Shown piece after piece: positions 1 through 64,000 of a DNA stretch of 64,000 bases. The translations under genes and the position numbers were made by a program. Position 1 is the first letter of the stretch. Each line of letters begins with the position of its first letter. Origin of the DNA: Raillietiella orientalis (taxonomy: Eukaryota); assembly GCA_036172245.1 (NCBI GenBank), contig JAYWIR010000044.1:1550001-1614000 (forward strand), written 5' to 3'. The notes beneath the pieces are model-generated. The model was given only the letters and a program-made list of their open reading frames with translations. It made no database searches and had not been told where the DNA came from.

Positions 1-805
1 TGTATGGACAGTTCGCTGCTCCCCCTTGCTTGGAAACCAGCCGTGCTGCTTTTCGTTCACTGGGGTTTTCAGTGCAACGAGCGTTGGCATCGTGACTCCG
101 GGGGACTTGCGTCTGCGAACTGCGTTCTGTGCGGATCGACGGAGTCGATTCCGCACCTACTTCTGGACTGCGGTGTCCTACAAGGACTGTGGCGTAGGCT
201 GGCAACAGCACTATTGCATCCCGTGGACACCGCAAGAGACTTGCTGCGACGATTCTTCACGCGGAGCGGGCTTTCACTAAGCGCAAGGATTGCAACCATC
301 GGTTGCATACGCGCGATAGTTTCCGTCCGCCAGGCGTTGGTAATCAACGGACAGCACCAAGAGGTAATCAGCAAAGCATCCTTCTACATGGGAGCATCCG
401 CTAGATGGCCTCATTTGACAGAGGAGACAAAGAGGAATCTCGCCGCAATACACCGCCGGTTTACACACGCTCAGCAGCGGCCAACCCGGTGATCATTGAC
501 CTACCCTCCATAAACTATTTTTGTATTTTCTTTTTACATCCGCGTCCCCATAGGCTCCGGAACATTCTAGGTGCTCATCGTCTAAATCCCCGTGAGTACG
601 GAGCCTAACCAAAAACCCGTTACCCTTCCCTCCAGTTTTTGATTTTTGTTTGTTTCCCCTCATTCCTCCCACACTGCGAGCGGTTTGTTTACCAAGCCTG
701 CGTGCCGGTAATTTTTCTATGTTCTCTGTCGTTCTGTTGTTGAAGGACATTGTCCCTGAGCAGTTTATTATTATTAATAAACGCCCCGGCGTGACCGGGT
801 GATAA
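1..805 (+). mobile_element. 3' end of an L1/Tx1-like LINE (E0): ORF2 C-terminal zinc finger and 3' UTR
   Basis: ORF 4..492 carries CVLCGSTESIPHLLLDC. A T-rich UTR follows, then AATAAACGCCCCGGCGTGACCGGGTGA at 776-802. Near-identical to 59973-60777. Confidence 0.9.
776..802 (+). terminator. Conserved 3'-terminal signal AATAAA + CCCGG-loop-CCGGG hairpin; representative copy
   Basis: Present at 13 element 3' ends with a conserved stem and variable loop. The function is inferred. Confidence 0.7.
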
Positions 806-1361
806 ATTTCAATCTCCGTCTGCTAACAGGTGAGCCACAAACACAAGAGAACGCGATGAACGAGTTGTGCGCCGCCATGCGTGCGCGCAACTTGTTCGCG
901 GGTGAGAGGGGAATGGTCCGCAGCATCGACCACGTCTTCCTCGACGCTAACCTGTGTTCACGGGTCGGCAAACGGGGGAGGGTTGCGTCGACGTTGTCGG
1001 ACCATTCCCGGTTAATTTTCGAGATGTGGCCTCGAGACAAAGGACCACCGTCCAGGGATTGGCGTATGCCGGTGGACTGGACGCGACTCTCAGGTGCGAA
1101 GGAACGCCTTCGCGAATACCTGAGAAGCGTCACGCTCCGGAATCTCCATTGAAACCCGGGTGCGCCGGGACGTTTATTCTCTCGAATAAACCTATACAAT
1201 CTGTTACTGGACCAGTAGTCCAGCCACGCCCTGGAAAGATATAGCTTGCCGGGCTACCGGTGCGCAGACCGGCGCGGTCGACCTCGGCAGCAGAGGGGAG
1301 GGGGAACGAAACAAAAAGAAAACAAAAAATAAACAAAAATCAGGGAGGGAGCGGGAAGGGA

Positions 1362-4300
1362 TCACAGTCTGCTGGGAGGCTCCGTCATCCTCTGGAGGAT
1401 GCCGGCAAGCTGTTTCTGCGTGTGTGGTTCCAGATGGGGCCATCGCGTCGCCATCCTGAGGAAACGGGCAGCATACACGTTGGCATCCCTGTCGCTGGAT
1501 CCTCCCGTCGATTTGCTCCATGCCACGACGATCCCGCGTAGGCAGCACAGGGCTGCAAGCAAGGCCGCTGGAGGCAGGGCGTCACGGACGAAGAGGGGGC
1601 GCAAAGCGTCACTGGGGTTGCCTCCGGGGATCCCCACGGCTGCGGCAAAGCGTTCCCACAAGGGACGGAGGGCAACACAATCCACTAACAGGTGGGGGAG
1701 GTATTCCCTCTCCCCGCACCTGACACAATTAGGGTTGACAACCCCCGCGTCCAGTGGTTTTGGCGGGCGTTGCAAGGAAACCCCCAATGCAACACCATCA
1801 GTGCCGACTGTTGCCACTTTATGGGGAGGGTGCGCGAGTCCATAAGCACCATGGGACACTCGAGATGTTCCTCTGGAACATCCAGTAGCTCTCCCCAGCG
1901 CAACAGTCCATTTGGGGTGGTCCTCGGGGTCGCAGCGTTGGTGAGCTGACCCGTTCTCCAATCCCCGTTCTTCTTTGCCCTGCTGGCGATCTTGAAAGTA
2001 ACCTCCCATTGTGCCGCGACGTCGCTGCCCAGATGTTCCCGTAGGGTAGGCAGTACCGCAGCAAGGGAGGTTCTTTGTGCCCACGCTCTCCTTCGGGGAT
2101 TCTCGATGATTTCTCGGAGCGTGCGGCGGGCATGCGGCCCGAACAGAGCTATTCGCTCGTGTTGCGGGCTCTGCTCCTGAATCATCGCCCACGTGCGGAC
2201 GGTTTCCTGCAACCAGGCAGGGCCGTTCGCGGGGCGTACGAGGATCCGCGCCGAGTTGTTCTTCACGAGCTTGGCCGCCCTCCGAAGTTGAAGTCCGCAG
2301 TGGCAGATGGGGCTTCGGAGTGCAAAGTAGGACGAGAGTCCCGCATTGCCGGTGGCCCGCTCGACGAGGAGACGTGCAGGGAGGCACCGAGGGGTGCACC
2401 AGTTTTCTGCCATAAAGGCAACAACTCGGAACTGGAGCTGTAGCTCCAGCCGCTCCAACGTCAGGAGACCCAGAGCACCATCCCGACGAGGAGCGCACAA
2501 GTCCGAAAGACGGACTCGGGGCCTCCCTCTGCCCCAAAGGGCGATCCTCAGGAGGTCCTTCGTCCTCTTCTTTGACTTCGCTGAGGGGGGGCAAACAAAA
2601 AGCAAGGAGCGAAGGAGGGGGGCCGCAAACGCGTTCCACGCCGCGGCCCGTTCATGCAGGAAGAACCTGCCGTCCTGGAACGGGCCGATCGCCTCCTGAG
2701 CTTTCTGAAGGCAGCCGGACCACGCTTCCGCAGGGGAGTAATCCCCCAACGGCACACCAAGGTACTTGAAGTACCTCACCGTGGGGATCCTTAAACGGAC
2801 CCAGTCCTGCTGCCCTGCCCACGCCGCTCCGACTGGCATTACGGACGACTTCGCCCTGTTCACCGTCAGTCCTGTTCCACGACTCAGCAGGTCGAAGAAG
2901 TCCTCGACCGCCGAGGCCGGGGTGGACATAGGCAGCAGCAGCAGAAGGTCGTCCGCGTACGCCGAAACCGCAGGCGTACCGGGGCAATCGCACGGCAGGT
3001 GCGCAAGAGTCTCCCTGTACGCTCTCAGCACCAATTCGAAAAAGGCGCTAAAGAGCAGGGGGCTAAGGCTGTCTCCCTGCCGTATGCCGCGTCGCACCGG
3101 TACTCCGTGCACGGTTTGCTCGCTGAAAAGAACATTAATGAGCGCGTCGCGCCAGCTGGAGCGCAGGTAGGCCAACAAAGAGGCCGGGAAGCCCAAGCGT
3201 TCCAGAAGCTCCAAGAGGAGATTCTGGTCGACGCTGTCGAATGCTTTACGCAAGTCGACAGCGACCGCAAGGGCTCCCTTCCCCACCCGACCGTTCCGTC
3301 TCCCGCCAACGGACGCACCGGAATTCCGGCTGCTTAATAAGCCCCTTCCTTGTTGGAGCTCTAACCATGTGGAAGCGTGGAACAGTTTCGCCTCCATGCT
3401 CCGCCCGGGAACAGCATAAGTCTGTTCCGGGCTGATGAAGATGTTGGCAACCCGTCCCAGACGCTCTGCCCACATCTTGGCTATCAACTTGGCGTCCGCA
3501 TTCACTATTGTGATGGGACGCCAGTTGTTCATGCTCCTTAGGTCTCCTCCCTTCGGGAGGAGCCGAACCTTTGCTGAACGAAACGAGGTGGGAACGTCAC
3601 CTGTTACACGGATCAGCAAGGTGAGCTGATGTACCAGGGGAGTAAGCTGAGCCGCGAAAGTTTGGTAAAACTCCGCGGGCAGGCCGTCCTCCCCTGGAGC
3701 CTTCCGCCTCTTGAGCTTTCCGATGGCCGAGAGGATCTCGTCCATCGTGGAAGGCTCGTCGAGGCTTCTTTTCTCCTCCTCCCCGATCGCTGGAGCACCT
3801 TCCGGAAGCAGAAGTCGTGAGACGTCCCGCTCCGGAGGCGCCCTGGCGTACAGGGAGGAGTAAAATTTCCTGACTATCCCGCGTTTCTGAGCGGGAACCG
3901 AGTGCTCCCGGCCCTGGTCGTCCAGCAAGCTGGCCGACCCGGATTGCCAGGCTTGCCTCTCGGCTCCCGCTCGATACTCTGCTAACCTGCGCATGTCGGG
4001 GGTTCTTGCGTAACGTCGGGCCTGAAGATAGCACCTTTCGTTACGCGGCCCCTCCCCAAATCCCGCAGGTAGGCGATGCAGGGGGAACTGATCGCAGAAC
4101 TCCTGGACCGACCGCTTGAAGCGGTCCCAGTCCTGAAGTGTCTGCATCCTGAAGCTTCGAATAAACGCGCGGAGGTGCTCCGCCGCGTCGGGAAACTTCA
4201 GCCAGTCCCCTGGCAGACGCCACGCTGACGAGGGGGGGCCCTTGTCGCGCGGACGCACTTCGAACATGATCCGACCATGGTCCGACAGCTCGGATGGTAC

Positions 4301-4942
4301 CTTGCCGCGCCTGCCAACCCGAGAGCATAGGTGCTGATCAAGGTACACGTGATCGATGCTGCTTTCCATGGCCGTGTCCCCGGCCAACAAGTTGCGCGTT
4401 TTCATTTCTGCGCACAACTCGTTGACGCGGTCGTTCAGTGTATCCGGCGCACCTGAAAGCAGGCGCAGGTTGAAATCACCTGCGATCAGGTGCGCTTTGC
4501 AAACTCCTGCATCGGTCAGCCAATCGCGTCTCAGGGCAAGGTAGAATTCCCTTCTTGCCTTCGCCCTCAACGCGTTGTTTCCGCGAGGAGCGTATAGGTT
4601 GGTGAAGACCAGGTCGATAGAGTCGGACCAGCTGAGAGTCAGCTGACCGACGCGACCTGCGTCATCGAAGCGAACGTCCTTTATTGCGGTCTCGATGGCT
4701 GGCCGAAGCAGGAAGGCGACACCGCTTGATTTCGCGGTGCCGCAACGCCACAACAGCCGCCCACCCGAGATCCGTTCGATCTCCCGGGCTTGATCTGCGG
4801 AGATCAGGTGGATCACCTGCAGCAGCACCAGGTCGAAGGATGCCAGGGTGGCGGCCACGTCACGCCTCTTGCCGTCGTCGCTTAGCCCGTTCACGTTCCA
4901 ACAGGCGATCAGAAGACGACGGCGAGAGGCGATTCCCGGCAT
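1362..4942 (-). pseudogene. E1 ORF2: APE endonuclease, reverse transcriptase and zinc finger; nearly intact
   Basis: 1085-aa ORF with WNVNGL, GDFN, IDH, SDH, KAPGEDG, WRPIT, KAFD, RQGDSLSP, YADD and KYLG. A frameshift near 1740 moves CVRCGEREYLPHLLVDC into ORF 1362..2639. The endonuclease QE motif is mutated to QV. Confidence 0.93.
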
Positions 4943-6584
4943 TATGGCTGGGAAAGTGGCGTCGCGACACCTGCCGCGGGGCAGTGTCGGAAAGGTCCAT
5001 CGGTACGAGGACGGAGGCCTCTTCAGGCGCCTGGGGTACCTGTTCGGCCTCCATCCTCACCATCCCCTCCGTGTCCGAGCGTGGAATTCTCTCGGGCGAC
5101 GGATCCCGGGAGTTTCCCACGCTCATGGCACCCTCGCTACCGGAAGCCATCTCTTCCCCTTCGTCGGGGGAGACGATCTTCCGGGGCATTGTGGACTTTC
5201 GTCCTGCCTTTTTGCGGAGTGCCGCGGAGATGGATGCTGTGTTTCCGGCCTTCACCTCGGGGTCGGAAGTGGCCGACTCCTGAGGGGAAGCCGGACGCCT
5301 GACGGCCTTCTTGCCAGCCTTGGGGGCAACCGGCTGCAGCGAGGCAGCCAGCTCCTCCGCGGCGCGCTCGAAGGCGACGTCATCGAGCGTGGGCACGATG
5401 ACGGACGCCGCCGCCTCGCTTCCCTCCTTGTTGACTTTGTCAACGGAGGGTTGAGCAGGGGCAGCAGCGAGTTCTTTAGCGCCGCATCCGTCGATGGCGG
5501 GAATCCGCTCTACAACGACGCAGCAGCTTTTAATTTTTTCGCGGCGCAGGGCGGTTTCGCTCCGTTTCGCCACGTTCTTTCCCTTCTTATGGGAGTTTTT
5601 CTTGGGGTCGACCTTCTGCCACCCTGGCTCTTGACCCTCGCCCTCGACCTTTTTGGCGTTTTAAGCAGAAGTCTCGGGGCTGGCCTTCGCCTTGGTGGCG
5701 GAGGTGACCTCCTTAGCAGCATCACGAGCTGCCAGCTTCTTTCTCTTTTTTGCCGCGCGCTTTCTCGCGTTTTTCGCGGACACGACGCGGACTGTGTTTT
5801 GGGGGCACACCAGACGGGTGTGCCCCGCTTGTTTGCATTGCTGGCACTGCACGTTTGGACACCTCATTTTAAGGTGACCAAAGCTGCTGCAGCAGCCGCA
5901 AAACTTGGGTTTCCCCACGTACCACACGTCAACGGATTCACCGTTGACGGTAAGTTTGTGGGGAAACTCACATCCCTCGCGAACCGTCACTCGCGCTGCA
6001 CCCAGGCCGCCAAGCACCCCGTCGTAATCGACAAAAGGAGTAGGCTTTCCCCACAGCGCGTGGACTGTTGCAAACTTTTCTAATTCGTTCCGGACGGCCT
6101 CCTTCCTCATCCGGAACGTGATACCGGTCAGGTGAATGATCACCGACCGGTCTTCAGTAATGGGGAGAAGCCTCCGGCTGCCCATAATTACGGGGGTTCG
6201 CAGAAGTCTCTGCGCAAGAGTTGCCTCCTTGCAGATAACTTCCACAAATTGACCCCCGCTTCTGACGGACATAGCCAGAAGTTCCTCTTTTTGTACACCG
6301 AGAACGCGCATCGCCTGCGAAAAGGCGCGCGCGTTCTCGGGAGAATATAAACCGCCTACCTTATATAGAAGGGGTGGGTTATACCCCTCCTCCAGGTAAG
6401 CGCGCATTTCCGCCATAGCCGCTGGCGTAGGTGCCGCAGCCACGGCGTTCCAAGCCCTGGGTAGGGCCGGGGGCGCATCCATGCTGGCGGAAGCCTCCAC
6501 TGATGCGAGAGCCCCCACCTCCATCTCCTCCGGGGGCAATGAGGTCATCGACCCCGGATCCTCACCGGTGGTGGTATCAGGCAT
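4860..6584 (-). pseudogene. E1 ORF1 (gag-like nucleic-acid-binding protein, two CCHC knuckles) with one in-frame nonsense codon
   Basis: 5661..6584 has CGCCSSFGHLKMRC and CQQCKQAGHTRLVC. TAA at 5661-5663 is followed in the same frame by 4860..5573; the homolog 38417..39487 reads through this position. Confidence 0.88.
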
Positions 6585-6640
6585 TGCTGCCTAATCCTCC
6601 ACCCACACCACGCACAAGCACCAACGGAAATGAAACTCAG

Positions 6641-6666
6641 GAGCAACGAAAAGACACGTCCGCTCG
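6641..6666 (-). promoter_or_regulatory. Conserved 5'-terminal motif (candidate internal promoter); representative copy
   Basis: CGGACGTG-TCTTTTCGTT-GCTC. Equivalent motifs occur at seven other element 5' ends. Confidence 0.6.
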
Positions 6667-9600
6667 ACGCTCCGGAATCTCCAGGACTGGGACCTTTTTC
6701 AGGAATCGGTCTGCGAGTTCTGCGAGCATTTTCCCCTGGATCGCCTGCTTCCCGGATTTGGCTAGGGTGTTCGCAACCATCGAGCCTATTTACGGGTTCG
6801 TTGTTACGAGAGAACCCCTAATGTATGTCGCTTGGCCGAGTACCGCGCTGGGGCCGAACGCCAAGCCTGGCAAACCGGGTCGGCGAGCTTGCTGGACGAC
6901 CAGGGCCGGGAATGTTCGTCCCCGGCGTCGGTACGGCATCTCGTGCGGAGTTTTTATTCCTCCCTTTACGTCAGGGAGCCCCCGGATCGGAAAGCCTCTC
7001 GGCCCTTGCTTCCGGATGGCGCCCCGGCAATAGGGGAGGAGGAGATGGAAAGCCTCGACGAGCATTTTACCACCGGCGAAATTCTCGCCGGTATCCAAAG
7101 GCTCAAGAGGCGTAAAGCTCCAGGGGAAGACGGCTTGCCGGCGGAGTTCTTTCAGTGCTTCGCGGAAGAGCTGGCACCCCTGCTGCTTAAGTTGATCAGG
7201 CTGATCCGAGACGAAGGCGATGTTCCCGCCTCGTTTCGGTCAGCCAGAGTGAGGCTCCTTCCGAAAGGGGGAGACCTCAGGGATTTAAAGAACTGGCGTT
7301 CAATCACAATAGTGAATGCGGACACCAAGTTGCTAGGAAAGGTTTCAGCAGAGCATCTGGGACGGGTTGCCAACATCTTCATCAGCCCGGAACCGACATA
7401 TGCTGTTCCCGGGCGAAGCATGGAGGCGAACCTGTTCCACGCTTCCACCTGGCTAGAGCACCAACATGAAAGGAGCTTGGTGCGGACCTGGAATTCCGGT
7501 GCGTGCGCCGGCAAGGGGTTGGATGGTTGGGTGGGGGAGGGAGCCCTTGCGGTCGCAATCGACTTGCGAAAAGCATTCGATTATGTCGACCAGAATTTCC
7601 TTCTGGAGCTTCTGGAACGCTTGGGCTTCCCGGCCTCATTAGTGGCCTATCTGCGCTCTAGCTGGCGCGACGCGCTCATCAAGGTTACTTTTAGCGGGCA
7701 GACCGTGCACGGCGTGCCGGTGCGGCGTGGGATCCAAAAGGGATACAGCCTGAGTCTCTTGCTCTTCAGTACCTACTTTGAGTTGGTACTGAGACCGTAC
7801 AGGAGAACTCTGGCGCAGCTGCCGCACGACTGTGCCGGGTACGCCGGTCGTTTCAGCATACGCGGACGACCTTCTGCTGCTGCTCCCTATGTCCACCCCG
7901 GCTGCGGCCTTCGAGGAGTTCTCCGACCTTTTGCATCAAGGAACCGGACTTACGGTCAACAGGGCGAAGTCGTCAGTGATGCCAGTTGGTGCGGCGTGGG
8001 AAGGGCAGAAGGACTGGGTGCGTTTGGGGATCCTCACGATGAGGTACTCCAAGTACCTTGGTGCGCCGTTGGCATACTACTCCCCGGCGACAGCGTGGTC
8101 CGGCTGCCTCCAAAAAGTAGAGAAGGCGATCGGCCCGTTCAGAGGCGGTAGGTTTTTCCTGCCTGAACGGGCAGCGGTTTGGAACACGTTCGCGTCTCCT
8201 CTCCTCCGCCCTCTGCTTTTTGTTTGCTTCTCTACAGAGAGAATTAAAAAGCGGACAAAGGACCTCATCCCTATCGCCCTTTGGGGCAACGGGAGGGCCC
8301 GAGTCCGATTAAAGGACTTGTGCACTCGTCGTCGGGACGGTGGTCTGGGCCTGCTGACGCTGGAGCGGCTGGAGCTTGAGCTCCAGTTTCGCTTGTCGGC
8401 ACTCTTTCCAGAGTTGTGGTGCACCTGTTGGTGCGTCCCTGCACGTCTCCTTCTCCAGCAAGCCACCGGCAAGATGGGACTGATGTCGTTTCTTGCACTC
8501 CGTCGCCGCGTCAACCGATGCGGACTCCAGCTACGGTGGGTGGCTGCGCTGTATCGGAAAAACTTAGGATTGCTCACCTGTCGCCCTTTGAACGGTAGTG
8601 CCTGGTTTCAGGAAACCGTTCGAACGTGGGGACAGTTCGGCATGCAACGCTTTCAACAGTAACGAAAGTTTCTGTTTGGGGGTTACAGAAGTTGCACGCT
8701 CCGCGAGTTCCTGGAGGATCAAAAGAAGAGTGCGTGGGCAAGCAGAACCCCCCTTGCTGCTGCGCTGTCTTCCCTGATGGAGGATCTGGACAGCGATGTT
8801 TTGGCGAAGTGGGAGGTTACAGTAAAAATCTCCGGGAAGGAGAAGAAGATAGGAGAGTGGAATATGGTCCAGTTGACAGACACTGCGACCCCGAGTACGC
8901 CTCCCAATGTACTTCTGCGTTGAAGAGCGCTGCTCGATGTTCCCATTGAACATCTGAACTGGTTCCCGGTGCTCATGAACACTTCCGCCATCCTTTTAAA
9001 ATGGCAGGAGACGGCTCTCCTGTTGCAGCACTGGGGACTCATCTGCAACGCCCGCCGACACCACTGGACCTGGGGAGCGGTGGACCTTAATTGCGTCAGG
9101 TGTGGGGAACGGTAGTCCCTTTTCCACCTGCTAGTGGATTCTATTGCCCTTCGGCCACTTTGGTTTCGCTTTGCCGCGGCCATCGGATTCCCCTGCGGTA
9201 ACCCCAGGGACGCACTGAAAGCCCTCTTCGCTGCTGACGCCTTTCGGCCAGCGACCTCGTTAGCAGCTTCGTGCTGCCTACGCGGGATCGTCACCGCTTG
9301 GAGCAAGGCAACGGGAGGTCAACGCGACCAGGGTGCCATCTTGCCAGCCTCTTAGTTTCTGAAGTGGGCCTCCCAATGGCCATACCTGGATCCAGTAATA
9401 CAGAAGGAGCTTGCCGGCATCCTGCAAAGGATGCAACGGCCCCACCAGCAACTGTAATCCCTTCCCTCACCCTCCCAAGTTTTCTTTTCTTTTTTGTTTT
9501 GTTTTTTGTTTTTCCCCCTTACCCCTGCTTCCGTGGTGGACCGTACCGGTCTGCGAACCAATGACCCGGCAGGCTCTGTGTTTCTTCGTGCGTGGCTGGA

Positions 9601-9674
9601 GCAATGGTCCAGCCACTACACGTCTTTGTAAATGTTTGTTTTATAATAAACGCCCCGGAGAAATCCGGGTGAAA

Positions 9675-10052
9675 ATCGAACGCTTTACAGAGAGCGACGG
9701 CGACCGCTAAGGCTCCCTGCGTTCCTTCGTGCCTTGAACCCCGCCGCTTACCTTTGGCAGCGGCGATTTTAGCTGCCTGGCACTACTGCGCCACGCGCTG
9801 CTGCAAATCGAACCATTTTAAAGGAAAGAAGAGATTCGCGTCCATGGACCGCCCCGGAACAGCATACGTCTACTCCGGACTTATCAAGGACTCCGCGATT
9901 CTCCCCAGGCGCGCGACCCATAGCTTGGAGAACAACTTCACGTTTGAATCCACCAATGTGATCGGACGCCAGCAGATCACCGCCTTTCGGCAGTAGACTC
10001 ACCTTTGCTGACCGGAAAGAAACCGGAACATCGCCGGTCTCTTGCATCAGCG
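9675..10052 (-). pseudogene. RT fragment (LMQETGDV...LLPKGG...AVAVALCKAFD)
   Basis: ORF 9769..10047 and adjacent frames. It ends at the AFD codons where the H1 3' end abuts. Confidence 0.85.
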
Positions 10053-15198: not shown

Positions 15199-15199
15199 A

Positions 15200-46707: not shown

Positions 46708-46727
46708 CCGGCGGAATCACCCACCAC

Positions 46728-52656: not shown

Positions 52657-54404
52657 ATGGTGGCGGCGCCTAGCGTGGGAGCCATGGCCGAGATGGAAGC
52701 CTACAAGAAAGCGGGGTATAAACCTTCGCTAGTTTACAAGGTAGGCAACCTTTTTAATGGGCAAACTGCACGCGCCTTTACGAAGGCGCTGCAGAACATT
52801 AATATCTTCGAAAAAGATCTTGACGGCCTCTCCGTCCTCAGCGGCGGGCAGCGGGTCGAGGTGGTATGCAAAGATATCACCTTGGCCCGACGCCTGATCA
52901 CCGACCCGCTGATCGTTGATGGTCGGAAGATCATGCCGGTGACGATGGACCGCTCGGTGGTGGTCCATCTCACTGGGATCTCCAGTCGCATGACTAGGTC
53001 AGCGGTTCGTGAACAGTTGCAAAAGCACGCAGAAGTGCACGCGTTGTGGCCGAAGTCCACGATTTTCCAAGGCTGCAACAGCCTTTTCGGAGGTCAAGCT
53101 GCGGCGCGTATCACAGTAAAAGAGGGTGGTGCGCTTCCCCACAAGCTGGAGGTCTGCCAAGAAGCGGTGGACCTCTGGTACGTGGGGAAACGCCAATTTT
53201 GTGGCTACTGCAATGCAGTAGGGCATCTACGAAAAAGGTGCCCGAACATTGTGTGCCACCTATGCGGCGAAAAGGGTCACGTTCGGCGCGTGTGCCCCAA
53301 GCGCCCCACCCCAGTGCTCCCTGCCGCCAAAAAGGCGCAGGGAAAACGTGGAAAGCTGGTAGAAAGACCAGCTCGCGAAAATGGCCGTTCCCAACTGCCA
53401 GCCTCCCTTCCTCCCGTACAGACGTCGGAGGAAAGAGCTCCCGTGAACACGGAAATGGTGGAGGGTTGGCAGCTGGTTCAAACCAGAAAAGAAAAAAAAA
53501 AGAAAGTGATGCCAGGAGAAAAGTCGGAGAAAAAAACTGCCGGCAACAAGAAAAAGCCGCGCCGCTTTCAAAAAAAGAACAACTTCGCGAATGCTCGGTG
53601 GCACTGGAACGCTTAGCCGTTCCTGCCGAGGCTGCCCGCGGCAATGTTCAGCAAACAGCTGATACGGACGCGATGGATACTCGCGTAAACGAGCCCATTC
53701 TACGTTTAGAGATTGAGACGCGAGACTCGCGCGCCGACAGCCAGGACGCTGCGCTCGATCAAGTCGCGGAGAAGCCCGCGGCAACGTTCGCCGTCAGCGA
53801 TGACTGCGCGCTCGATAAGGTCGCGGAGCAGCCCGCGGCAACGCTCGCCGCTGGGGAAGACGCGGCCTTCGAGAAAGCGGCGGAGGAGCTCGCAGCAACG
53901 CTCGCCGACCGCGAAACCATGTCGCGCAAGGGCGTACTCAGGTCGGCTCCGACGAAGAAGGCCCCCGCAGGTGAGTGCGACCTGGGGACCGGAAGCGGAT
54001 CCTGCTCCTCGGAGGCACCCCCCAGGAAGTCGGGACGCAAGTCCCAGAAACCCAGGAGGCGCCTCCCCTCCACCAGAGACGAGGACAAACCGGAAGGAAG
54101 CGGCAGCGCGGGAATCCCGGAGGGGGAATACCCACGCCCGGAAGCCGTCGAGTCGGCGACCCCCATAAAGGAGGGTGAGCAGGGGGGTGAAGTCCTCCCT
54201 GCAGTCGGGAAACCTGAGCAGCCCGAACCCATGGAGGAAGGCGAACAGGTAGGCGCGACTCCACCTGCGGGTGTTCCGGCCGACGCGCCGGCACCGATGG
54301 AGGAGGAGGAACAGGTGCCTTCAGTACCTGTCCCCCCTCCCCACCCACCTAGCTTCCCGACCCAGCAGTTGGCGGACGCCGCATCGCCGTTTTCCCAGAG
54401 CTAA
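52657..54404 (+). pseudogene. E15 ORF1, frameshifted in an A-run near 53490
   Basis: CGYCNAVGHLRKRC and CHLCGEKGHVRRVC. The conserved LRECSVALERL and AAEELAA motifs lie in the second frame. Confidence 0.85.
53744..53910 (+). repeat. Three ~57-bp (19-aa) tandem coding repeats in ORF1
   Basis: DAALDQVAEKPAATFAVSD / DCALDKVAEQPAATLAAGE / DAAFEKAAEELAATLAD. Confidence 0.85.
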
Positions 54405-54950
54405 CACCTGGGCAAGCCAGTCGCCGTCGGATTCGCGCGGCCTGTTGGAACGTCAACGGGCTGCGCGACGACGGCAACAGGCGAGATACGGCCGACACTC
54501 TGCGTGAGCTCGACCTGGCGCTGCTCCAGGACATCCACGTGATCACCGCGGCAGACGCCGAGGAGATCGAGACGATCGCGGGGGGTCGGTTGTATTGGCG
54601 ATGCGACCTCCGCAACACCTGCGGGGTCGCGTTCTTCGTGAAGCCGGCCATCGACGCTGCCGTACAGGGCGTGCGGTTTGATGACGACGGTCGGATCGGT
54701 CAGCTACTTCTCAGCTGGTCCGACTCGATCGACCTAATCGTCACAAACGTGTATGGCCTCAGCGGCAAACAGGGGTACCGCGACCGCACCAGGCTGCTGG
54801 AAACCCTCAAACGCAACTGGCTGGCGGATACCAATGTGCGAAAGGCTCACCTGATAGCGGGAGATTTCAATCGAGTGCGGACGTGTTTTTCTTCGCTCTC
54901 GTCTCCGTGCTTTCATCCGCTTCATCTTGGCGTCGTACATTTTGACGACG

Positions 54951-56873
54951 ATGTCGACCCAACTTGAAAATCCTGAAGTTGGAGGAACAGCATCCGGATC
55001 TGCAATCGCGGAACCGACGGCCGCCTCCACTTCCTCTTTCTCGCCAATAAAGAGGAGTTTTGCTGACGTTGCTGCCACAGCAGCCGTCAAAGGGAAGCCA
55101 CTCGACGAGTCGGAGTTGCGGGCATACGTAGCCGAAGGCTATAGACCTGCTCTCCGATATAAGGTGAGTGGTTTTCTTTCTGCGCGCGACGGGAATCAGT
55201 TCAACGATGAACTGACCCGTGTTGGCGTGCGGAAGGAGGACCTTCTCGCCATTATGCCCGTAAAAGACATGGGCTATTTCAACGTGCGTTGCAAAGACGC
55301 TACACTTGTGCAACGCTTGCTGCGCACCCCGCTGTCGATCCGTGGCCAGAAGGTCTTCCCGGCCGCCATGGACGACTCATTTGTGGCAAAGATTTTCCAC
55401 ATCGAGTCGGAAATCTCCGATACTGATATTCGGAACGCGTCCGCGAAATTCGCCACGGTCCATGCGCTGTGGAGGGTGCGTAGCAACCTCAAGGACTTCC
55501 CGTCCATACACAGCGGAGTCGCTGAAGTCCGGCTTACAATGCCGGACCGCCGTCTGCTGCCCACCAAACTACAGGTGAAAGACACGGTCGTTCACCTGTG
55601 GTTCGTGGACAAAGTAAGAACGTGCGAGCAATGCGGGAAGGAGGGGCATTTTTTGGATAAATGCCCCTCCGGAAAATGCCGTTATTGCAAACTATCCGAA
55701 CACCAATTGAAAAATTGCCCGGATCTTTTGCGAAAATAGGCAGCCGCGGAGCTCCATCTGAGAAAACAAAGCGCGGATAAAAAGAAAAAATCTGCGAAAA
55801 ACCTGGAGACCCCACGGCAGAAATTCTGAAGAAACGCGAGGCGGAATGTCGCCCCAAAGCAGCAGGAAACCTCGCAAGCGAAGCCCTGCGCGCCCCCTCT
55901 CGCGGCAGGCGAGCCGCAAAAGAAAGGGTACGGGGAATCCGGGGCAATGGTAAATCCCCCTAGGCGCAATAGCTGTCTTTCCCAAGCACGCCCGGCTCTC
56001 TCGGAGTTCGAGCAACCGGCGGGGACGCCAATGGACAACGGCGGTAAGGGCAATTCCAGTACCGTCAGATCCATTCCTTCACCTCCTGCAGTGGCTGAGA
56101 AGCCCAAATCGGGTAAGAAGGGTTGTGCCGTGTCGACTTCGAAAGTCGGCAAAAAAAAATCCGCGTCGCGATCCAACACCGCGAAAGCGGAGAAAAATCT
56201 CACGCCGTCGCAGTCGGAGAAAAAGCTTTCGACTGGCGCGGATGCCATGCCAACGAAGGGATTAAAAGCCCTTCCGAAGGCAGCGTCCATGACGAGCGTG
56301 CCGGAGCCATCGAAACTGCTCCCGTTTAAAGACGCGGAGGGCTTCAAAGATGGCAATGGAACACAATCTCCATTTACGGCGCAGCGCGAAGTGAGGAACC
56401 GTAATGAAGTAAAGAAGACTTCAGCAAAGGTCCCTCGTGCAACTGCGCGTGAGCACGCTGAAAACGCGCGCGCCGGGAAAGCAGCCGTCACCAAAAGCGA
56501 TGCTCTGGAGACGGAAAAAGACAACAGGACAGCTGTCAATCCAGCAGAACCTGTCACTACTTCGCGGAAGGCCGAAACCCGTTCAACCATGCGCCGGTCG
56601 GTCTCCGAAATGGATGCCGTTCCGATCACCGAGACGAGGACAACTCGTTCGAAAGCGTGTGCGCACCGTTCAAAAGTAAGCAGCCAGACAACGCTAGCCG
56701 CGAAGCCACGCGAAGTCTCCACGAATCCCGACGGGGTTAAGCCTGACGTGGAGGCATTACATGCATGCAGCACGACGGAGGACGGTGGCGACCGTCCCCT
56801 CCAGCCAGTCGTGCTGCTCGCCGTCTGCTCGCCGGATAAAGCGAGCAAAAAGCCGCCACCTTCCCAGCAGTAA
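54951..56873 (+). pseudogene. E16 ORF1 with one in-frame stop at 55737-55739
   Basis: CEQCGKEGHFLDKC and CRYCKLSEHQLKNC. 55947..56873 continues in the same frame. Confidence 0.85.
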
Positions 56874-59800
56874 TGCGGGGAATCGCGTCTTCTCGTCGTC
56901 TGTCCGTAACGTGTTGGAACGTGAACGGACTACAGAACGACGAGAAGAGGCGATTAGTAGCCAACGTCCTGCGCCCCTTCGACCTCACGCTGCTGCAGGA
57001 GATTCACGTAATCTCCGACGAGCAGGCAGCCGAAATCGCGGAGCGCGCAGGCGGAACGCTACATTGGCGGTGCGGCGGCGCACACACGTGCGGCGTCGCG
57101 TTCCTCATAAGAGTAAAAATGGCGGAAGCGGTGCGTAGTGTTCGTTTCGATGACGAAGGACGGATAGGCCAGCTTGTCATCAAGTGGTCCGAGTCCATCG
57201 ATCTCGTCGTTACGTACGTCTACGCGCCGAGTGGTTTTCGCTACCTCGAAGAAAGAGCAGCTTTCTTTGGTGAGGTGCAGAGCCACTGGCTAAAAAACTC
57301 CGGCTTCCAAGTGGCGCACCTCGTCGCTGGGGACTTCAACGTCCGCCTGCTCTTCGACGACTGGAGCCGCCCGAGAAAGCGCGCGCTGCCCATCGAGATG
57401 TGCGCGTCCGTGCACGCCGCCAACTTGATGGTCAGCGAACCTGGAATGGAAAGATCGCTCGATCACGTTTTGCTCGATGAAAACCTGCATTCGCGTGTGA
57501 GTAGGAGAGGAAGATTGTTGACTGAGCTTTCTGACCACTACAGCATGGAGTTTGAGATCCTTCCGCCAGGCAGGGGGCCTCCGTTGCAAAGCTGGAGGAT
57601 GCAGGCGGATTGGCTTAGCGAATCAGAGGCTGCAGAGCATCCACGTGGATCCCCCCGAGGCTTTGCCATTCAAGAACTTTCGGACTGGGACGATCTCAAA
57701 AGATCTGTCCGCGAGTTCTGCTGCCAATTCCCCTTGCACCAGCTTCCACGCGGTTTCGGAGAGGGCGTGGCCAACGGTAGAGACTTTCTGCAGGCCCGCA
57801 CGTTTTCGAGACGCGCGGATGTCGGGCGTCTCGCAGAGTACAAGGCGAGGGCCGAGCGCCAGGTCTGGCAGTCCGGAGCAGCATGCCTGTTGGACGACAA
57901 GGGCCAGGAATGTTCCGCCCCAGCCGAAGTACGCCGCATTGTGAGACGCTACTTCTCCTCGCTCTACGCCGAATTTCCGACGGAGGATATTCTTTCTGAG
58001 ATACTCCTTTCTCAGGATGCTCGTGTTGTCGGCGAGGAGGAACGCGAACGTCTAAACGAGCCCTTCACGGCGGATGAATTTTCGTCCGCCATCGCTGGGC
58101 TGAAGAGACGAAAGGCGCCAGGCGAGAATGGGCTCCCTGTAGAGTTTTATCAGTGCTTTGCAGTGGAGCTCATTCCCTTGATGCTGAAACTCGCGACGCT
58201 GATGAGTGAATCCGGGAATGTCCCGGATTCCTTCCGCTCAGCGGAGGTGCGTCTCCTGCCGAAAGGCGGAGACTTGCGCCAACTTAACAACTGGCGCCCG
58301 ATCAGCTTGGTGAACTCTGACGTCAAGTTGTTTTCCAAGCTGTGGTTCGCGCGGTTAAGAAGTATCGCGGAATCTGTAATGAGCCCGGAACAAACCTGCG
58401 CGGTTCCGGGACGATCCATGGAGGCGAACATCCTTTTCGCGCGTACATGGATGCAGCTGGAGGAAGTTGTGGCTCAGCAAAGCCAGGCTGCTGCGAAAGT
58501 CACTGATGCAGGCAAAAAGAACAAGCGCCGACGGCAGGAGGGAACGCCAGGTGCCTTGGCGGTCGCGGTCGATCTCCACAAGGCGCTCGACTGCGTAAAC
58601 CAGAAGCTGCTTTTGGAGCATATGGAACGCCTTGGGTTCCCGGCGGAACTCCTGCTGTATTTCCGCGCGTGCTGGCGCCACGCACTAACCTGCATCACTT
58701 TTAGCGGCTGCCGCGTGTATGGTATTCCCGTTCGTAGGGGTATCCGACAGGGCGAGAGCTTAAGCCCGTTGCTCTTCAGCATCTTCTTTGAGTTGGTGCT
58801 AAGAGCATACAGGCTGACGCTGTCTCACTTGCCAAGCTCCTGCCCGGGAACGCCTGCCGTGGCCGCCTACGCTGATGACCTGCTTCTTCTGCTCCCCATG
58901 TCCACCCCGGCGTCCAGTGTCGAGGATTTCTTCGAGCTGATTCGTCGGACAGCGGGCGTGAGCGTGAACAGAGAGAAGAGCGTGGTCGTTCCTGTGGGTA
59001 CGTCGTGGGATGGGCAGTCCGACTGGATCCGCCTGGGGATTCCCACGGGCAGGTACTTTAAGTACCTTGGCGTTCCGTTGGGCGCTTTCAACGCAGCCGA
59101 AGAGTGGGCGGACTGTGTTCAGAAAGCAGAGTTGGCCATCAGGCCGTTCTTTAACGGCAAGTTTACCTTGCAGGAACGGGCGACTATTTGGAACACTTTT
59201 GTGGCCCCCCTCCTCCGTCCCCTGTTTTGTGTTTTGGACCCCCCCTATGCGGAAAACAGCGGGCTAAACGCCTGCTCAGGAACGCTCTTTGGGGTATGGC
59301 GAGATCCAGGATCCGCCTTAAAGATTTGATAGCTCCGCGTCGGGATTCTGGTTTGGGTATCTTGACAATGGAGCGAATCGGACTGCAGGTGGAGTTCTGA
59401 CTGCTGGCACTGCGTGCCCAGCTATGGACATCCCCCTGTGTGTACCAACCCGCAATTTCCTGCGGAGATGCGCCGGCAGCGGAGGATTTCTCTCGCTTTT
59501 GCCGGGCACTCAATACAGGAAGCTGGGTTTCGGGTTAGCACTGCGGCAGTTGACCGCACTTCTGGAAGCTCACTCGTGAATCTGCTGCCGCTTCATGAAC
59601 TTTTAAGATTGGCGGCAAGAGTCTGTCTAATTCTGGGTGGCTTTTCAAGAAATACGCCCTGAAGGTCTTTGCCTTCTGCTCTAATTTTTGCCACGATCCT
59701 TGGAAGAAGTGCTGCAGGACAAGGTGAAGTTTTGTACCCTGGCTGAGACGCCTCTTGCCGCAGCGCTGTCTGGCCTCATGGCAAGAAACGATAGTTGCCA

Positions 59801-60464
59801 ACCGGCGTGCTGCGAGGTTTCCTTCACGATAGAGGGAAAAACCAAACTTCTTGGCGCCTGGAAGACGAGTGAGTTGGCGGACGCCGCCACTCCTCGTGTT
59901 ACTGCAAAGGGACTCCTCCGGTGGGAAGAAGAACTTGCTGTCAGCTTCGAAGAACTTGTAGTCCATGCACAGTGTGTTGACAGTTCGCTGCTTTCCCTTG
60001 CTTGGAAACAAGTTGTGCTGCTTTTCGTTCACTGGGGTTTTCAGTGCAACGAGCGTTGGCATCGTGAATCCGGGGGACTTGCGTCTGCGAACTGCGTTCG
60101 GTGCGGATCGACGGAGTCGATTCCGCACCTACTTCTGGACTGCGGTGTCCTACAAGGACTGTGGCGTACGCTGGCAACAGCACTAATGCATCCCGTGGAC
60201 ACCGCAAGAGACTTGCTGCGACGATTCTTCACGCCGAGCGGGCTCTCACTAAGCGCAAGGATCGCAACCATCGGTTGCATACGCGCGATAGTTTCCGTCC
60301 TTTAGGCGTTGGTAATCTACGGACAGCACCAAGAGGTAATCAGCAAAGCATCCTTCTACATGGGAGCATCCGCTAGATGGCCTCATTTGACAGAGAAGAG
60401 AAAAAGGAATCTCGCCGCAATACACCGCCGGTTTACACACGCTCAGCAGCGGCCAACCCGGTGA
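56873..60464 (+). pseudogene. E16 ORF2: EN and RT open for 818 aa, C-terminal region disrupted
   Basis: WNVNGL, LQEIH, GDFN, LDH, SDH, WRPISL, RQGESLSP, YADD and KYLG; zinc finger in 59688..60305. Confidence 0.92.
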
Positions 60465-61378
60465 TCATTGCCCTACCCTCCATAAACTAATTTTGTATTC
60501 TCTTATTACACCCGCGTCCCCATAGGCTCCGGAACATATTAGGTGCTCATCGTTTAAATCCCCGTAAGTACGGAGCCTAACCAAAAACCCGTTACCCTTC
60601 CCTCCAGTTTTTGATTTTTGTTTGTTTCCCCTCATTCCCCCCACGCTGCGAGCGGTTTGTTTACCAGACCTGCGTGCCGGTAATTTTTCTATGTTCTCTG
60701 TCGTACTGTTGGTTAAGGACATTGTCCCTGACCAGTTTATTATTATTAATAAACGCCCCGGCGTGACCGGGTTCTAAATTTTAATCTCCGTCTGCTAACA
60801 GGTGAGCCAGAAACACAAGAGAACGCGATTAACGAGTTGTGCGCCACCATGCGTGCGCGCAACTTCTTCGAGGGTGAGAGGGGAATGGTCCGAGCATTGA
60901 CAACGTCTTCCTCGAGGCTGACCTGTGTTCACGGGTCGGCAAACGGGGGCAGATTGCCTCCACGCTGTCAGACCATTCCCGGCTAATTTTCGGGATGCCG
61001 CCTCGCGACAAGGGACCGCCATCCAGGCACTGGCGACTCCCCGAGGACTAAACGCGACTCTCAGTTGAAAAGGTACACCTTCGCGAATACCTGAGAAGCG
61101 TCACGCTCCGGAATCTCCAGGACTAAGACGTTTTTAAGGAATCGGTCCGCGAATTCTGCGAGCAGTTTCCCCTGGATCGCCTGCCCCCCGGATTTGGCGA
61201 GGGTGCTCGCAACCATCGAGCCTATTTACAGGCTCGTATTTACGAGAGAACCCCTAATGTCCATCGCTTGTCCAAGTACCGCTCTGGGGCCGAACGCGAA
61301 GCCTGTTAATCCGGGTCGGCCAGCTTCCTGGACGACCAGGGCCGGGAATGTTCGTCCCCGTCGTCGGTACGGCATCTC

Positions 61379-63902
61379 GTGCGGAGTTTCTATTCCTCCC
61401 TTTACGCCAGGGAGCCCCCGGATCGAAACGCTTCTCGGCGCTTGCTTCCGGATGGCACCCCGGCAATAGGGGAGGAGGAGATGGAAAGCCTCGACGAGCC
61501 TTTTACCACCGACGAAATTCTCGCGGGTATCAAAAGGCTTAAGAAGCGTAAGGCGTCAGATGAGGACGCCTTGCCCGCGGAGTTTTTTCAGAGCTTCACG
61601 GAAAAGCTGGCACCCCTGCTGCTTAAGTTTATCAGGCTGATCCGAGACAAAGGCGATGTTCCCGCCTCGTTTCGGTCAGCCAGAGTGAGGCTTCTTCCGA
61701 AGGGGGGAGACCTCAGGAAATTGCACAACTGGCGTCCGATCACCATCGTGAACACGGATGCCAAGTTGCTAGCACGGCTATGGGCTTCGCGTTTTGGGCA
61801 GGTGGCAGAGTCCATAATTAGCCCGGAGCAGACCTATGCAGTTCCCGGGCGAAGTATGGACGCCAACCTCTTCTTCGCAAGCACGTGGATGCACCTGCAA
61901 AGGAGAGAAAAGAAAGGGAAAGGGAAAATCGGCAACCCCACATTGGGGCCGCCAGCTGGGCTGCGAAGGGAACCCTGGGCGGGGAAGGGAGCCCTAGCGA
62001 TCGCAGTCGATCTCCAGAAGGCGTTCGACTGTGTAGACCAGGAACTCCTCTTGGAGCTCCTGGGTTGCATGGGCTTCCCACCCTCCTTGATATCCTACCT
62101 GCGCTCGTCCTGGCGGAATGCGATGATTACCGTCTCTTTCAGCGGCCACAAGGTGTATGGCGTGCCGGTGCGGCAGGGCATAAGGCAGGGAGAAAGCCTC
62201 AGCCCCCTGCTCTTTAGCACCTACTTTGAGTTGGTGCTGAGAGCGTACAGGGTGACTTTGGTTCCCTTGCCGAGCTCGTGCCCCGGAACGCAGGCCGTAG
62301 CGGCGTATGCCGACGATCTTCTGCTCCTCTTACCTATGTCCACCCCTGCGAAGGCGGTCGGAGACTTCTTCGACCTGCTCAATTGCGGTACCGGACTGCA
62401 GGTTAACAGGGCGAAGACGTCCGTAATGCCAGTCGGAGCGGCGTGGGCAGGGCAGCAGGACTGGGTCCGTTTGGGGATCCCCACGGTGAGGTACTTCAAG
62501 TACCTTGGTGTGCCGTTGGGGGACTACTCCCCTGCGGAAGCGTGGTCCGGCTGCCTTCAGAAGGCTCAGGCGGCGATCGGCCCGTTCCAGGACGCCAGGT
62601 TCTACCTGCAGGAACGGGCCGCGGCGTGGAACGCGTTTGCGGCCCCCCTCCTTCGCCCCTTGCTTTTTGTTTGCCCCCCTCAGCGGAGTCAAAGAAGAGG
62701 GCGAAGGACCTCCTGAGGATCGCCCTTTGGGGCAGAGGGAGGCCCCGAGTCCGTCTTTCGGATTTGTGCGCTCCTCGTCGGGATGGTGGTCTGAACCTCT
62801 TGACGTTGGAGAGGCTGGAGCTACAGCTCCAGTTCCGAGTTGTTGCCTTTATGGCTGAAAATTGGTGGTCTCCTTGGTGCCTCCCTGCACGTCTTCTCGT
62901 CGAGCGGGCCACCGGCAATGCGGAACTCTTGTCCTACTTTGCACTCCGAAGCCCGATCTGCCACTGCGGACTTCAACTTCGGAGGGCGGCCAATCTCGTG
63001 AAGAACAACTCGGCGCGGATCCTCGTACGCCCCGCGAACGCTCCTGCCTGGCTGCAGGAAACCGTCCGCACGTGGGCGATGATTCAGGAGCAGAGCCCGC
63101 AACACGAACGAATAGCTCTGTTCGGGCCGCATGCCCACCGCACGCTCCGAGAAATCATCGAGAATCCCCGAAGGAGAGCGTGGGCACAAAGAACCTCCCT
63201 TGCTGCGGTACTGCTTACCCTACGGGAACATCTGGGCAGCGATGTCGCGGCACAATGGGAGGTTACTGTCAAGATCGCCAGCAGGGCAAAGAAGATCGGG
63301 GATTGGAGAACGGGTCAGCTCACAAACGCTGCGATCCCGAGGACCACCCCAAATGGACTGTTGCGCCGGGGAGAGCTACTGGATGTTCCAGAGGAACATC
63401 TCGAGTGGACCCCGGTGCTCATGGACTCGCGCACCCTCCCCATGAAGTGGCAACAGTCGGCACTGCTGGTGTTGCATTGGGGGCTTCCTTGCAACGCCCA
63501 CCGACACCACTGGACGCGGGGGGGTGTCAACCCTAATTGTGTCAGGTGCGGGGAGAGGGAATACCTCCCCCACCTGTTAGTGGATTGTGTTGCCCTCCGT
63601 CCCTTGTGGGAACGCTTTGCCGCAGCCCTGGGGATCCCCGGAGGCAACCCCAGAGACGCTTCGCGCCCCCTCTTCGTCCGTGACGCCCTGCCTCCAGCGG
63701 CATCGCTTGCAGCCCTGTGCTGCCTACGCGGGATCGTCGTGGCATGGAGCAAAGCGACGGAAGGATCCAGCGACAAGGATGCCAACGTGTATGCCGCCCG
63801 TTTCCTCAGGATGGCGACGCGATAACCCCATCTGGAACCACACACGCAGAAACAGCTTGCCGGCATCCTCCAGAGGATGACGGACCTTCCCAGCAGACTG
63901 TG
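61379..63902 (+). pseudogene. E15 ORF2 RT and C-terminal region (frameshift near 62680, stop at 63823-63825)
   Basis: WRPIT, KAFD, YADD, KYLG and CVRCGEREYLPHLLVDC. Confidence 0.9.
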
Positions 63903-64000
63903 ATCCCTTCCCGCTCCCTCCCTGATTTTTGTTTATTTTTTGTTTTCTTTTTGTTTCGTTCCTCCTCCCCTCTGCTGCCGAGGTCGACCGCGCCGGGCTG

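Follow-up and report, generated by a model that had tools for sequence, protein, structure and literature searches.

Introduction

Clusters of long interspersed nuclear elements (LINEs) inserted into one another are known from several organisms and, as far as the available text of the reports cited in this study goes, nested clusters made up of LINEs alone are a mark of centromeres in green algae and Mucor. Zepp forms nested clusters at putative centromeres of Coccomyxa, one per chromosome, with cluster sizes of 1.5–42 kb, and hotspots or function were offered as explanations of its self-insertion (PMC3446292). The nested ZeppL clusters at Chlamydomonas centromeres span 51–320 kb (PMC8226300, PMC9940879) and are bound by CENH3 (bioRxiv 10.1101/2025.03.28.645958). 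In Mucor circinelloides, Grem-LINE1 occupies gene-free pericentric regions of 15–75 kb with an AT-rich core of about 0.9 kb (bioRxiv 10.1101/706580). The Tx1 clade includes target-specific LINEs: Tx1 inserts into Tx1D, crocodilian Tx1 elements into Mariner-N4 or long terminal repeat (LTR) elements, and Keno into U2 (PMC4494074). CNL1 of Cryptococcus is reported to prefer insertion into its own copies in arrays, its sequence specificity being undefined (PMC12810828). How LINEs find their own kind is left open in the literature surveyed. Here we analyze a 64,000-bp stretch of Raillietiella orientalis DNA (assembly GCA_036172245.1, contig JAYWIR010000044.1, positions 1,550,001 to 1,614,000), further referred to as the window, which is occupied almost entirely by nested LINEs with two open reading frames (ORFs), ORF1 and ORF2.

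We consider it likely that the window is part of a domain of at least 64 kb built by a LINE lineage of the L1 superfamily inserting into its own relatives. LINE-in-LINE clusters as such are already known; what is new here, and supported by the junctions described below, is that the landing sites are nucleotide-precise, specific to a subfamily and located in the lineage's own ORF2. The anatomy of the elements, their target-site duplications (TSDs), nesting, recurrent junctions and mosaicism are described as observed in the window.

Results

Recurrent landing sites in host ORF2

The junctions are referred to the following map of the window (aa, amino acid positions; UTR, untranslated region; APE, apurinic/apyrimidinic endonuclease domain; RT, reverse transcriptase).

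1–806, plus strand: B', 3' end of a B-type element (ORF2 C-terminus and 3'UTR) in H1; 95% identity to B
807–1147, plus strand: H1 left, ORF2 aa ~194–307; holds the left copy of the 16-bp TSD of A (1132–1147)
1148–6666, minus strand: A, full-length, 5.5 kb; intact ORF1 of 309 aa and ORF2 of 1123 aa (APE and RT); antisense in H1
6667–9675, plus strand: H1 right, ORF2 aa ~294–1116 and 3'UTR; 3' half C-type; terminus at antisense RT motif A of X1
9676–10052, minus strand: X1, fragment of a host ORF2 (aa ~607 to 480), B-like; H3 is probably part of this element too
10053–11550, plus strand: F/B2 5' part, 5'UTR and B-like ORF1, followed by one half of the spacer between the ORFs
11551–17246, minus strand: D, divergent sister family, full length; ORF1 of 337 aa, ORF2 with 2 in-frame stops
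17247–21722, plus strand: F/B2 3' part, remaining spacer, ORF2 and 3'UTR; terminus at antisense ORF2 aa ~90 of H3
21723–23950, minus strand: H3, 5'-complete, H-type; 5'UTR (24/48-bp repeats), ORF1, spacer, ORF2 aa ~38–90; cut by F/B2
23951–24224, plus strand: X2, host ORF2 fragment, aa ~520–607, H2-like (79%)
24225–27822, minus strand: C2, C-type, ORF2 aa ~82–1105 and 3'UTR; 3' terminus at antisense RT motif A of X2
27823–28299, plus strand: G1, 5'UTR and ORF1 aa ~17–141 of host G1/H4; 88% identity to M
28300–28872, plus strand: X3, ORF2 aa ~418–607 of element X3/J, A-like
28873–30317, minus strand: C3, C-type, ORF2 aa 823–1121 and 3'UTR; 3' terminus at antisense RT motif A of X3
30328–32297, plus strand: J, remainder of X3/J, ORF2 aa 651–1121 and 3'UTR with a variant terminal hairpin
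32298–34473, plus strand: H4 left, where G1/H4 restarts at ORF1 aa ~197, followed by spacer and ORF2 aa 27–307
34474–40014, minus strand: A2, full-length A-type, decayed, 71% identity to A; antisense in G1/H4 before the D-W-D codons
40015–43197, plus strand: H4 right, ORF2 aa 306–1121 and 3'UTR
43198–43529, plus strand: P, 0.33-kb 3'-terminal fragment of another element, head-to-tail after H4
43551–44727, plus strand: M, 5'-complete, B-like; 5'UTR, ORF1 and ~300 bp of spacer; ends at the AT-rich island
44728–45384, no strand: AT-rich island, the only DNA in the window (bar scraps of 10–21 bp) without LINE assignment
45385–46732, plus strand: Q, 5' start motif; ORF1 aa 1–86 fused directly to ORF2 aa 771–~1095
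46733–49495, minus strand: N1, 5'-truncated at aa ~386; 3' terminus in antisense ORF2 aa ~1095 of Q
49496–52428, minus strand: N2, 5'-truncated at aa ~332; 3' terminus abuts the 5' end of N1
52441–54871, plus strand: H2 left, 5' start, ORF1 (zf-CCHC), spacer with a 57-bp repeat, ORF2 aa 24–196
54872–60778, plus strand: B, full-length, 5.9 kb; ORF1 intact, ORF2 open over 829 aa; in H2 at the G-D-F-N codons, sense orientation
60779–64000, plus strand: H2 right, ORF2 from aa 194 to the end; last 1.7 kb 92–98% identical to A; exceeds the window

In three elements whose 3' halves make up one subfamily, H1, C2 and C3, the terminal A run is joined to the same nucleotide of an antisense host ORF2 (C-type site). 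Read in the sense of the host, the host ends are ...AAAGCGTTCGA, ...AAGGCGTTCGA and ...AGAGCATTTGA, with the consensus ...GC(G/A)TT(C/T)GA(T)^, and the junction falls within RT motif A, inside its K-A-F-D codons, with a T/A ambiguity of 1–2 nt. When their last 265, 600 and 1400 bp are compared, the inserted copies show 76–88% identity. Identity among the three host flanks is 45–59%, and they have different best matches: B-like for X1, H2-like for X2 and A-like for X3. The inserts also differ in 5' extent, reaching aa 82 in C2 and aa 823 in C3, and running through aa 194 and beyond in H1. Given this divergence of the flanks, their different subfamilies and the differing 5' extents, we regard the three insertions as independent events. 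The same site is unoccupied in eight other ORF2 copies of the window.

A second site is shared by A and A2, which are 71% identical and both antisense to hosts of different subfamilies. The first-strand nicks lie 2 nt (in H1) and 3 nt (in G1/H4) before the conserved GACTGGGAC, which encodes D-W-D; the A2 nick would lie 6 nt before it if the 3-bp repeat at A2 is not a TSD, and the two nicks are thus 1–4 nt apart. The third case involves B-type elements. The 3' terminus of F/B2 is located in antisense ORF2 of H3 at aa ~90, and a contig from the public sequencing run X1 (distinct from the host fragment X1) carries a B-type 3' end at the same junction with another flank, which by eye matches the flank of B2 at 19 of 27 positions. 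Another contig from this run contains an H copy without the B insertion.

With ~11,000 position-and-strand choices per 5.5-kb host, the estimated probability of chance coincidence is ~1e-8 for the C-type triple and ~1e-3 for the A-type pair. Self-targeting was among the claims of the first-pass annotation, which had been made from the letters of the window. The junctions support it in a more specific form: two subfamilies reuse nucleotide-precise sites inside ORF2 of their relatives, and sequence-specific self-targeting would hold for at least these two (C-type and A-type).

Nesting and target-site duplications

Element A is flanked in H1 by an exact 16-bp TSD (1132–1147 and 6667–6682), and D in the spacer of F/B2, by the exact 8-bp TSD AGGTTTCC (11543–11550 and 17247–17254). 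The two halves of F/B2 sum to ~5.97 kb, compared to ~5.9 kb for B. The TSD of B in H2 is 7–8 bp long with one mismatch, (A)TTTCAAT versus (A)TTTTAAT, and A2 in G1/H4 has a 3-bp repeat only. At two insertions host sequence is missing: ~130 bp (aa 608–650) of X3/J at the site of C3, and 159 bp of M-equivalent sequence in G1/H4 at the site of X3/J. Three-level nesting is formed by C3 in X3/J in G1/H4, by A in H1 in the X1 host, and by D in F/B2 in the H3 host. TSD-bounded and three-level nesting had both been reported in the first-pass annotation and were recovered here, the former for A, D and B, with the correspondence between its element labels and ours being presumed.

Eight of ten nested insertions, counted from the map, are antisense to the host (one-sided binomial ~0.055). 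At least nine of the ~19 elements are complete at the 5' end: A, A2, B, F/B2 and D are full-length, and H2, H3, M and Q are 5'-complete, with G1/H4 being nearly so.

A run X1 contig with a D-like 3' end departs from the window at position 11543, so that the match extends over the 8 nt read here as the TSD of D. Either these 8 nt belong to the real end of D, or a GGAAACCT-type target has been reused by D as well.

Tandems, mosaics and public-run contigs

The tail of N2 abuts the truncated 5' end of N1 head-to-tail, and the tail of N1 lies in antisense Q; repeated use of one nick would give this pattern. Elements H4 and P form the second head-to-tail pair, on the plus strand. A candidate N-type landing site was considered given that CTTCC starts both flanks past N1 and N2, and was rejected, since the flank of N2 is the sense sequence of N1 itself, hence the tandem.

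Several copies are mosaics. The segment 1–1148 is 93% identical to 59973–61119, the compound B/H junction included. H1 and H2 (6667–7700 and 61103–62100) are ~83–93% identical for the first ~1 kb and 59–80% identical further on. The last 1.7 kb of H2 (62300–64000) is 92–98% identical to A (1265–2900, minus strand), and the 3' part of H1 is 80–88% identical to C2. Thus, recombination or gene conversion between neighboring copies has been active.

The sequencing-run search listed one DNA run (run X1, share 0.28) and no RNA run. The contigs obtained from public runs are short and 95–99% identical to the window, and they neither verify nor contradict its long-range order. The bins 9339–11339 and 15342–16675 were left uncovered by run X1 contigs. 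Matches of the public runs X2 and X3 are confined to a short simple repeat at ~1309–1340, in the T-rich tract described below.

Composition of the window

The GC content is 51–61% throughout the window. The element map assigns 63,300 of the 64,000 bases to LINEs, and the other 700 bases (1.1%) comprise the AT-rich island of 657 bp and three scraps of 10–21 bp. This agrees with the initial description of the window as LINE inserted in LINE bar ~0.6 kb. The assigned bases are made up by ~19 non-LTR retrotransposons with APE and RT, from several subfamilies and one divergent sister family; the several subfamilies and the divergent family had also been noticed at first reading. There are at least five subfamilies besides the sister family D. 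Copies are mutually 63–83% identical at the nucleotide level, and ORF2 of D is 28% identical to ORF2 of A.

A tblastn search with the intact ORF2 of A yielded 44 ORF2 high-scoring segment pairs on both strands, from base 805 to base 63522. Six-frame jackhmmer started from pieces of both ORFs covered 67.7% of bases at the protein level. The uncovered stretches are 3'UTRs (~0.55–0.65 kb), ORF1–ORF2 spacers (0.5–1.1 kb) and short 5'UTRs of the same elements; they were assigned to LINEs by continuity and in part by tblastx between spacers.

Neither tRNA genes nor Rfam matches were found in the window. Gap-overlapping ORFs of at least 70 aa numbered 172, and the ~100 longest of them contained no non-LINE Pfam domain; the sole Pfam match among them was one zf-RVT, itself a LINE domain. 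The first-pass annotation had likewise recognized no LTR elements, DNA transposons or genes. No telomere-type repeat was found in the 64 kb, which neither supports nor excludes a subtelomeric position.

The AT-rich island is bordered by the cut end of M on one side and by the 5' start of Q on the other, and its GC content is 29–40% per 100 bp. It has no Rfam match (E-value up to 1) and no Pfam domain, and its ends carry no inverted or direct repeats larger than expected by chance. An LTR-like TG...CA element with a TSD was considered for it and was a poor fit by eye. The island might be original chromosomal DNA or a piece resembling a centromere core as in Mucor.

Element anatomy and 3' ends

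Full-length elements are 5.5–6.0 kb long and start with CGAG(T)GCGGACGTGTyTTT. The longest open frame of the window (1685–5056, minus strand, 1123 aa) is ORF2 of A, with PF03372 at aa 53–260 and PF00078 (RVT_1) at aa 501–769. The second one (56840–59329) is ORF2 of B, with the same pair of APE and RT domains. The zf-RVT matches in ORF2 (E-values 0.0067 and 0.00053) are both under the Pfam cut-off, and the ORF2 alignment consensus has a CxxC...H....C pattern in its C-terminal Cys-His region. In ORF1, zf-CCHC is at or above the Pfam cut-off in H2, B and D; ORF1 of A has no Pfam score, and its CCHC knuckles were seen by eye.

The subfamilies have a common 3' end, AATAAACGCCCCGGCG-loop-CCGGGTGAnAAA, which consists of AATAAA, a CCCGG/CCGGG stem-loop and TGAnAAA. 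This motif occurs 13 times, compared to 1.08 times expected by shuffling, and none of 100 shuffles reaches 13. Twelve of the 13 occurrences are true element ends, and the variant end of J brings the total to 13 (positions 806, 1148, 9675, 21722, 24225, 28873, 32297, 34474, 43197, 43529, 46733, 49496 and 60778). The remaining motif match, at 11935 with three mismatches, was rejected as an element end given that it has no hairpin and no tail. The 5-bp stem is kept in all 13 aligned ends; it was read by eye, as the ungapped alignment puts loops of unequal length out of register. Changes in it are a G-U-compatible C-to-T in two copies (A2 and N1) and one terminal mismatch in P. D has its own 3' end, AATAAA with a CCCAC/GTGGG hairpin. 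None of the 13 ends carries a long poly(A) tail, the terminal run being 3–5 A; the four A or T runs of at least 9 in the window are all internal. The AATAAA of these elements is not known as the polyadenylation signal of chlorophyte algae, which use UGUAA.

The stem-loop sits ~7 nt from the element end. As it is kept in all subfamilies while the rest of the 3'UTR has diverged, it has the look of a shared RT recognition element, and cross-mobilization between subfamilies via this common stem-loop seems possible.

Both ORFs are intact in A. In B, ORF1 is intact and ORF2 is open over 829 aa; ORF2 of D has two in-frame stops, and the other copies have many stops. With intact ORFs, complete ends and an exact 16-bp TSD, A is a candidate active copy.

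The observed/expected ratio is 0.99 for CpG and 0.57 for TpA, and the numbers of transitions and transversions in two young duplicate pairs are 39/40 and 44/34. With this CpG ratio and with transitions approximately equaling transversions, the window shows no signature of repeat-induced point mutation or CpG decay.

Tandem repeats occur in the non-coding parts of the LINEs: 57 bp × 3.2 at 53728–53909 (H2 spacer), 24/48 bp at 23688–23780 (H3 5'UTR) and 27 bp × 2.5 at 16758–16825 (5' region of D). Several 3'UTRs contain a T-rich microsatellite-like tract (TTTTGTTTTCTT and alike) just past the ORF2 stop (1300–1340, 9480–9512, 24388–24420 and 60610–60630).

Kinship of the lineage

Among solved structures, phmmer against PDB gave human L1 ORF2p with an E-value of 2.3e-45, versus 2.4e-15 or weaker for R2 proteins. 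The HMMER protein search found a metagenome fragment, P0001, with 70% identity, one match with 35% and otherwise matches with 25–37%; apart from P0001, the nearest database proteins are 24–35% identical. Two word-indexed protein searches returned 16 and 23 matches, of which only P0001 is close, and none of these matches is named Zepp, ZeppL or Grem. The 21 metagenome loci found are all at most 34% identical. ESM Atlas gave generic APE/RT/zf-RVT clusters; their single taxon record, Mucoromycota (2 members), is a lead only.

The RT tree was built by FastTree from 149 rows taken from the best HMMER matches, with the reference set picked by similarity to A. Elements A, H1, H2 and B form a clade with P0001 (support 99), and D is its sister (98). 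The window clade falls within a 24-row clade (92) with proteins from Linnemannia, Closterium, a plant, Xenopus, Pseudophryne and Astyanax; the nearest 13-row clade includes a Mortierellomycota protein. APE and RT in ORF2 and human L1 ORF2p as the best solved relative are in line with the L1/Tx1-type assignment made at first reading. The lineage belongs to the L1 superfamily and is possibly near Tx1, the latter judging by a tree without curated L1, Tx1 or Zepp anchors.

Discussion

Proposed mechanism and rival explanations

The following mechanism would account for the window. The endonuclease and the target-primed reverse transcription machinery would nick specific target sequences confined to the ORF2 genes of LINEs, mostly on the sense strand of the host, which would place the new copy antisense. 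C-type elements would choose the RT motif A codons (K-A-F-D), and A-type elements, a position near aa 305 immediately before the D-W-D codons; the site at aa ~90 would be reused by B-type copies. As the landing sites are coding motifs which are hard for the family to alter, each new copy would land in an older copy, and therefore the domain would grow by nesting. The same nick used again would give head-to-tail tandems, and later recombination or gene conversion between neighbors would create mosaics. We infer from the junction sequences that it is the endonuclease itself that reads the landing sites. Genome-wide, the copies may be confined to such clusters, and these may have a centromere-like chromosomal role.

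Several observations weigh against this mechanism. Since 99% of the window is LINE, any insertion must hit a LINE; nesting alone is thus uninformative, and the argument for targeting comes only from sites that recur exactly. The sample is small: three, two and two junctions from one 64-kb window and one short contig. The primer ends at the nicks have no common short motif, and so no single simple cleavage rule covers all the sites. B-group elements are also found elsewhere, with B in sense at the G-D-F-N codons and H4 in the 3'UTR of P. Their specificity therefore looks looser, and not every subfamily is strictly site-specific. Target deletions (~130 bp, 159 bp and ~1.2 kb) are observed in place of TSDs at several insertions, which means that rearrangements have reshaped the array, and the other half of the C2 host is missing from the place expected for it after a simple insertion. 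Active gene conversion could in principle make the inserts look more alike than the flanks; as a way of faking recurrent sites it was rejected, because the host flanks belong to different subfamilies.

The LINE content and the several different sites occupied by the B group would fit targeting of the region, by tethering to CENH3 or heterochromatin, or passive survival in a gene-free domain of low recombination, with no sequence specificity and with nesting as a by-product. Such behavior has parallels in known LINE clusters in centromeric chromatin, namely ZeppL with CENH3 (bioRxiv 10.1101/2025.03.28.645958) and Grem-LINE1 in Mucor pericentromeres. It does not account for three C-type junctions at the same nucleotide of hosts that are 45–59% identical, nor for A-type nicks 1–4 nt apart, given the chance estimates above, and we consider it unlikely as the sole explanation, although the regional and site-specific mechanisms are compatible and do not exclude each other. 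Recurrence could also arise if segmental duplication or unequal crossing-over had multiplied a single old insertion per site, the inserts then being homogenized by gene conversion and the flanks not. The compound B/H junction (1–1148 and 59973–61119, 93%) has demonstrably been duplicated, and the copies are mosaics. However, the flanks X1, X2 and X3 match three subfamilies best and are near saturation at 45–59%, the inserts start at different places, and A and A2 reside in hosts of different subfamilies with TSDs of 16 and 3 bp, which makes a duplicated insertion quite improbable. Least probable of all, and hardly credible, is an array that is a chimera of reads from dispersed copies. Repeat-only regions are error-prone, ZeppL clusters were misplaced in Chlamydomonas assembly v5 (PMC9940879), and the short contigs at 95–99% identity leave the long-range order unverified. 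On the other hand, the copies differ by 17–37% and no more than two segment pairs are over 90% identical, which makes it unlikely that identical repeats were mis-joined. In addition, exact TSDs are present at the junctions, and the ORF coordinates run on across insertions.

Site-specific insertion into relatives thus remains the preferred explanation. As a speculative extension, which we regard as possible yet rather doubtful, the subfamilies may be engaged in an arms race, with the endonuclease of each cutting a different functionally unchangeable motif in ORF2 of the lineage itself (RT motif A, the D-W-D linker or the APE N-terminal segment) and with the AT-rich island being the original chromosomal core. 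If so, each jump would disable a relative, land in a harbor unable to mutate away and extend the gene-free domain; the 0.66-kb island would then be comparable to the ~0.9-kb AT-rich kinetochore-binding core of the Mucor mosaic centromeres.

For one lineage, the window gives a testable answer to the question of how LINEs find their own kind: precise sites in conserved ORF2 codons that differ by subfamily. If this holds genome-wide, sequence specificity alone would explain the harmless nucleation and growth of a repeat domain, as well as its purity. It would also explain the mostly antisense copies, whose convergent transcripts could feed silencing by RNA interference. The recurrent sites suggest how gene-free, centromere-like repeat domains can build themselves, and the window may be a source of new APE endonucleases with long recognition sites.

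Comparison with known systems

The first-pass annotation had called the cluster Zepp-like, which is true of its behavior only. As in Zepp and ZeppL, LINE-only clusters are formed by insertion into existing copies. In contrast, the 3' ends have a hairpin, a short A run and an AATAAA signal. According to the available part of the source, Zepp arrays consist mostly of 3' ends (PMC8226300), whereas at least nine of the ~19 elements here are 5'-complete. ZeppL is described as a single family in Chlamydomonas, unlike the five or more subfamilies and the sister family of the window. In the literature surveyed, with the primary Zepp papers outside its scope, no defined nucleotide target inside a Zepp element is given. 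The search for defined self-target sites led to Zepp, ZeppL, Tx1 and CNL1, supplements being outside its scope, and neither an RT-motif target nor any other defined target in the coding motifs of the element itself is described in the text available.

The available description of Grem-LINE1 lists PF00098 with PF16588 for ORF1 and, for ORF2, AP endonuclease together with PF00078 and PF13966, a set which matches that of the window elements and is not exclusive to Grem, and a poly(A) signal at the 3' end is also shared. The short AT-rich core of the Grem regions resembles the 0.66-kb AT-rich island, the sole non-LINE DNA of the window. However, Grem-LINE1 copies occur interspersed and are oriented away from the core, with a similarity of at least 95% inside each group, whereas the window copies are nested, 63–83% alike and of mixed orientation, with a GC content of 51–61%.

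CNL1, as far as it is described in the text available, is a single-ORF element of the R2 superfamily with a subtelomeric location, whereas the elements of the window have two ORFs and are of APE type, and telomere repeats are absent from the 64 kb. L1 proper primes with a poly(A) or A-rich tail, unlike the 3' ends of the window with their hairpin and TGAnAAA.

The Tx1 clade is alike in being an APE-type group of the L1 superfamily that, in the accounts available, inserts into defined sequences, also inside other transposons, and frog and fish proteins share the 24-row clade of the RT tree with the window elements. In contrast to the Tx1 clade, the elements of the window have their targets in conserved coding motifs of ORF2 from their own lineage, the sites differ by subfamily, and the result is a self-nesting domain.

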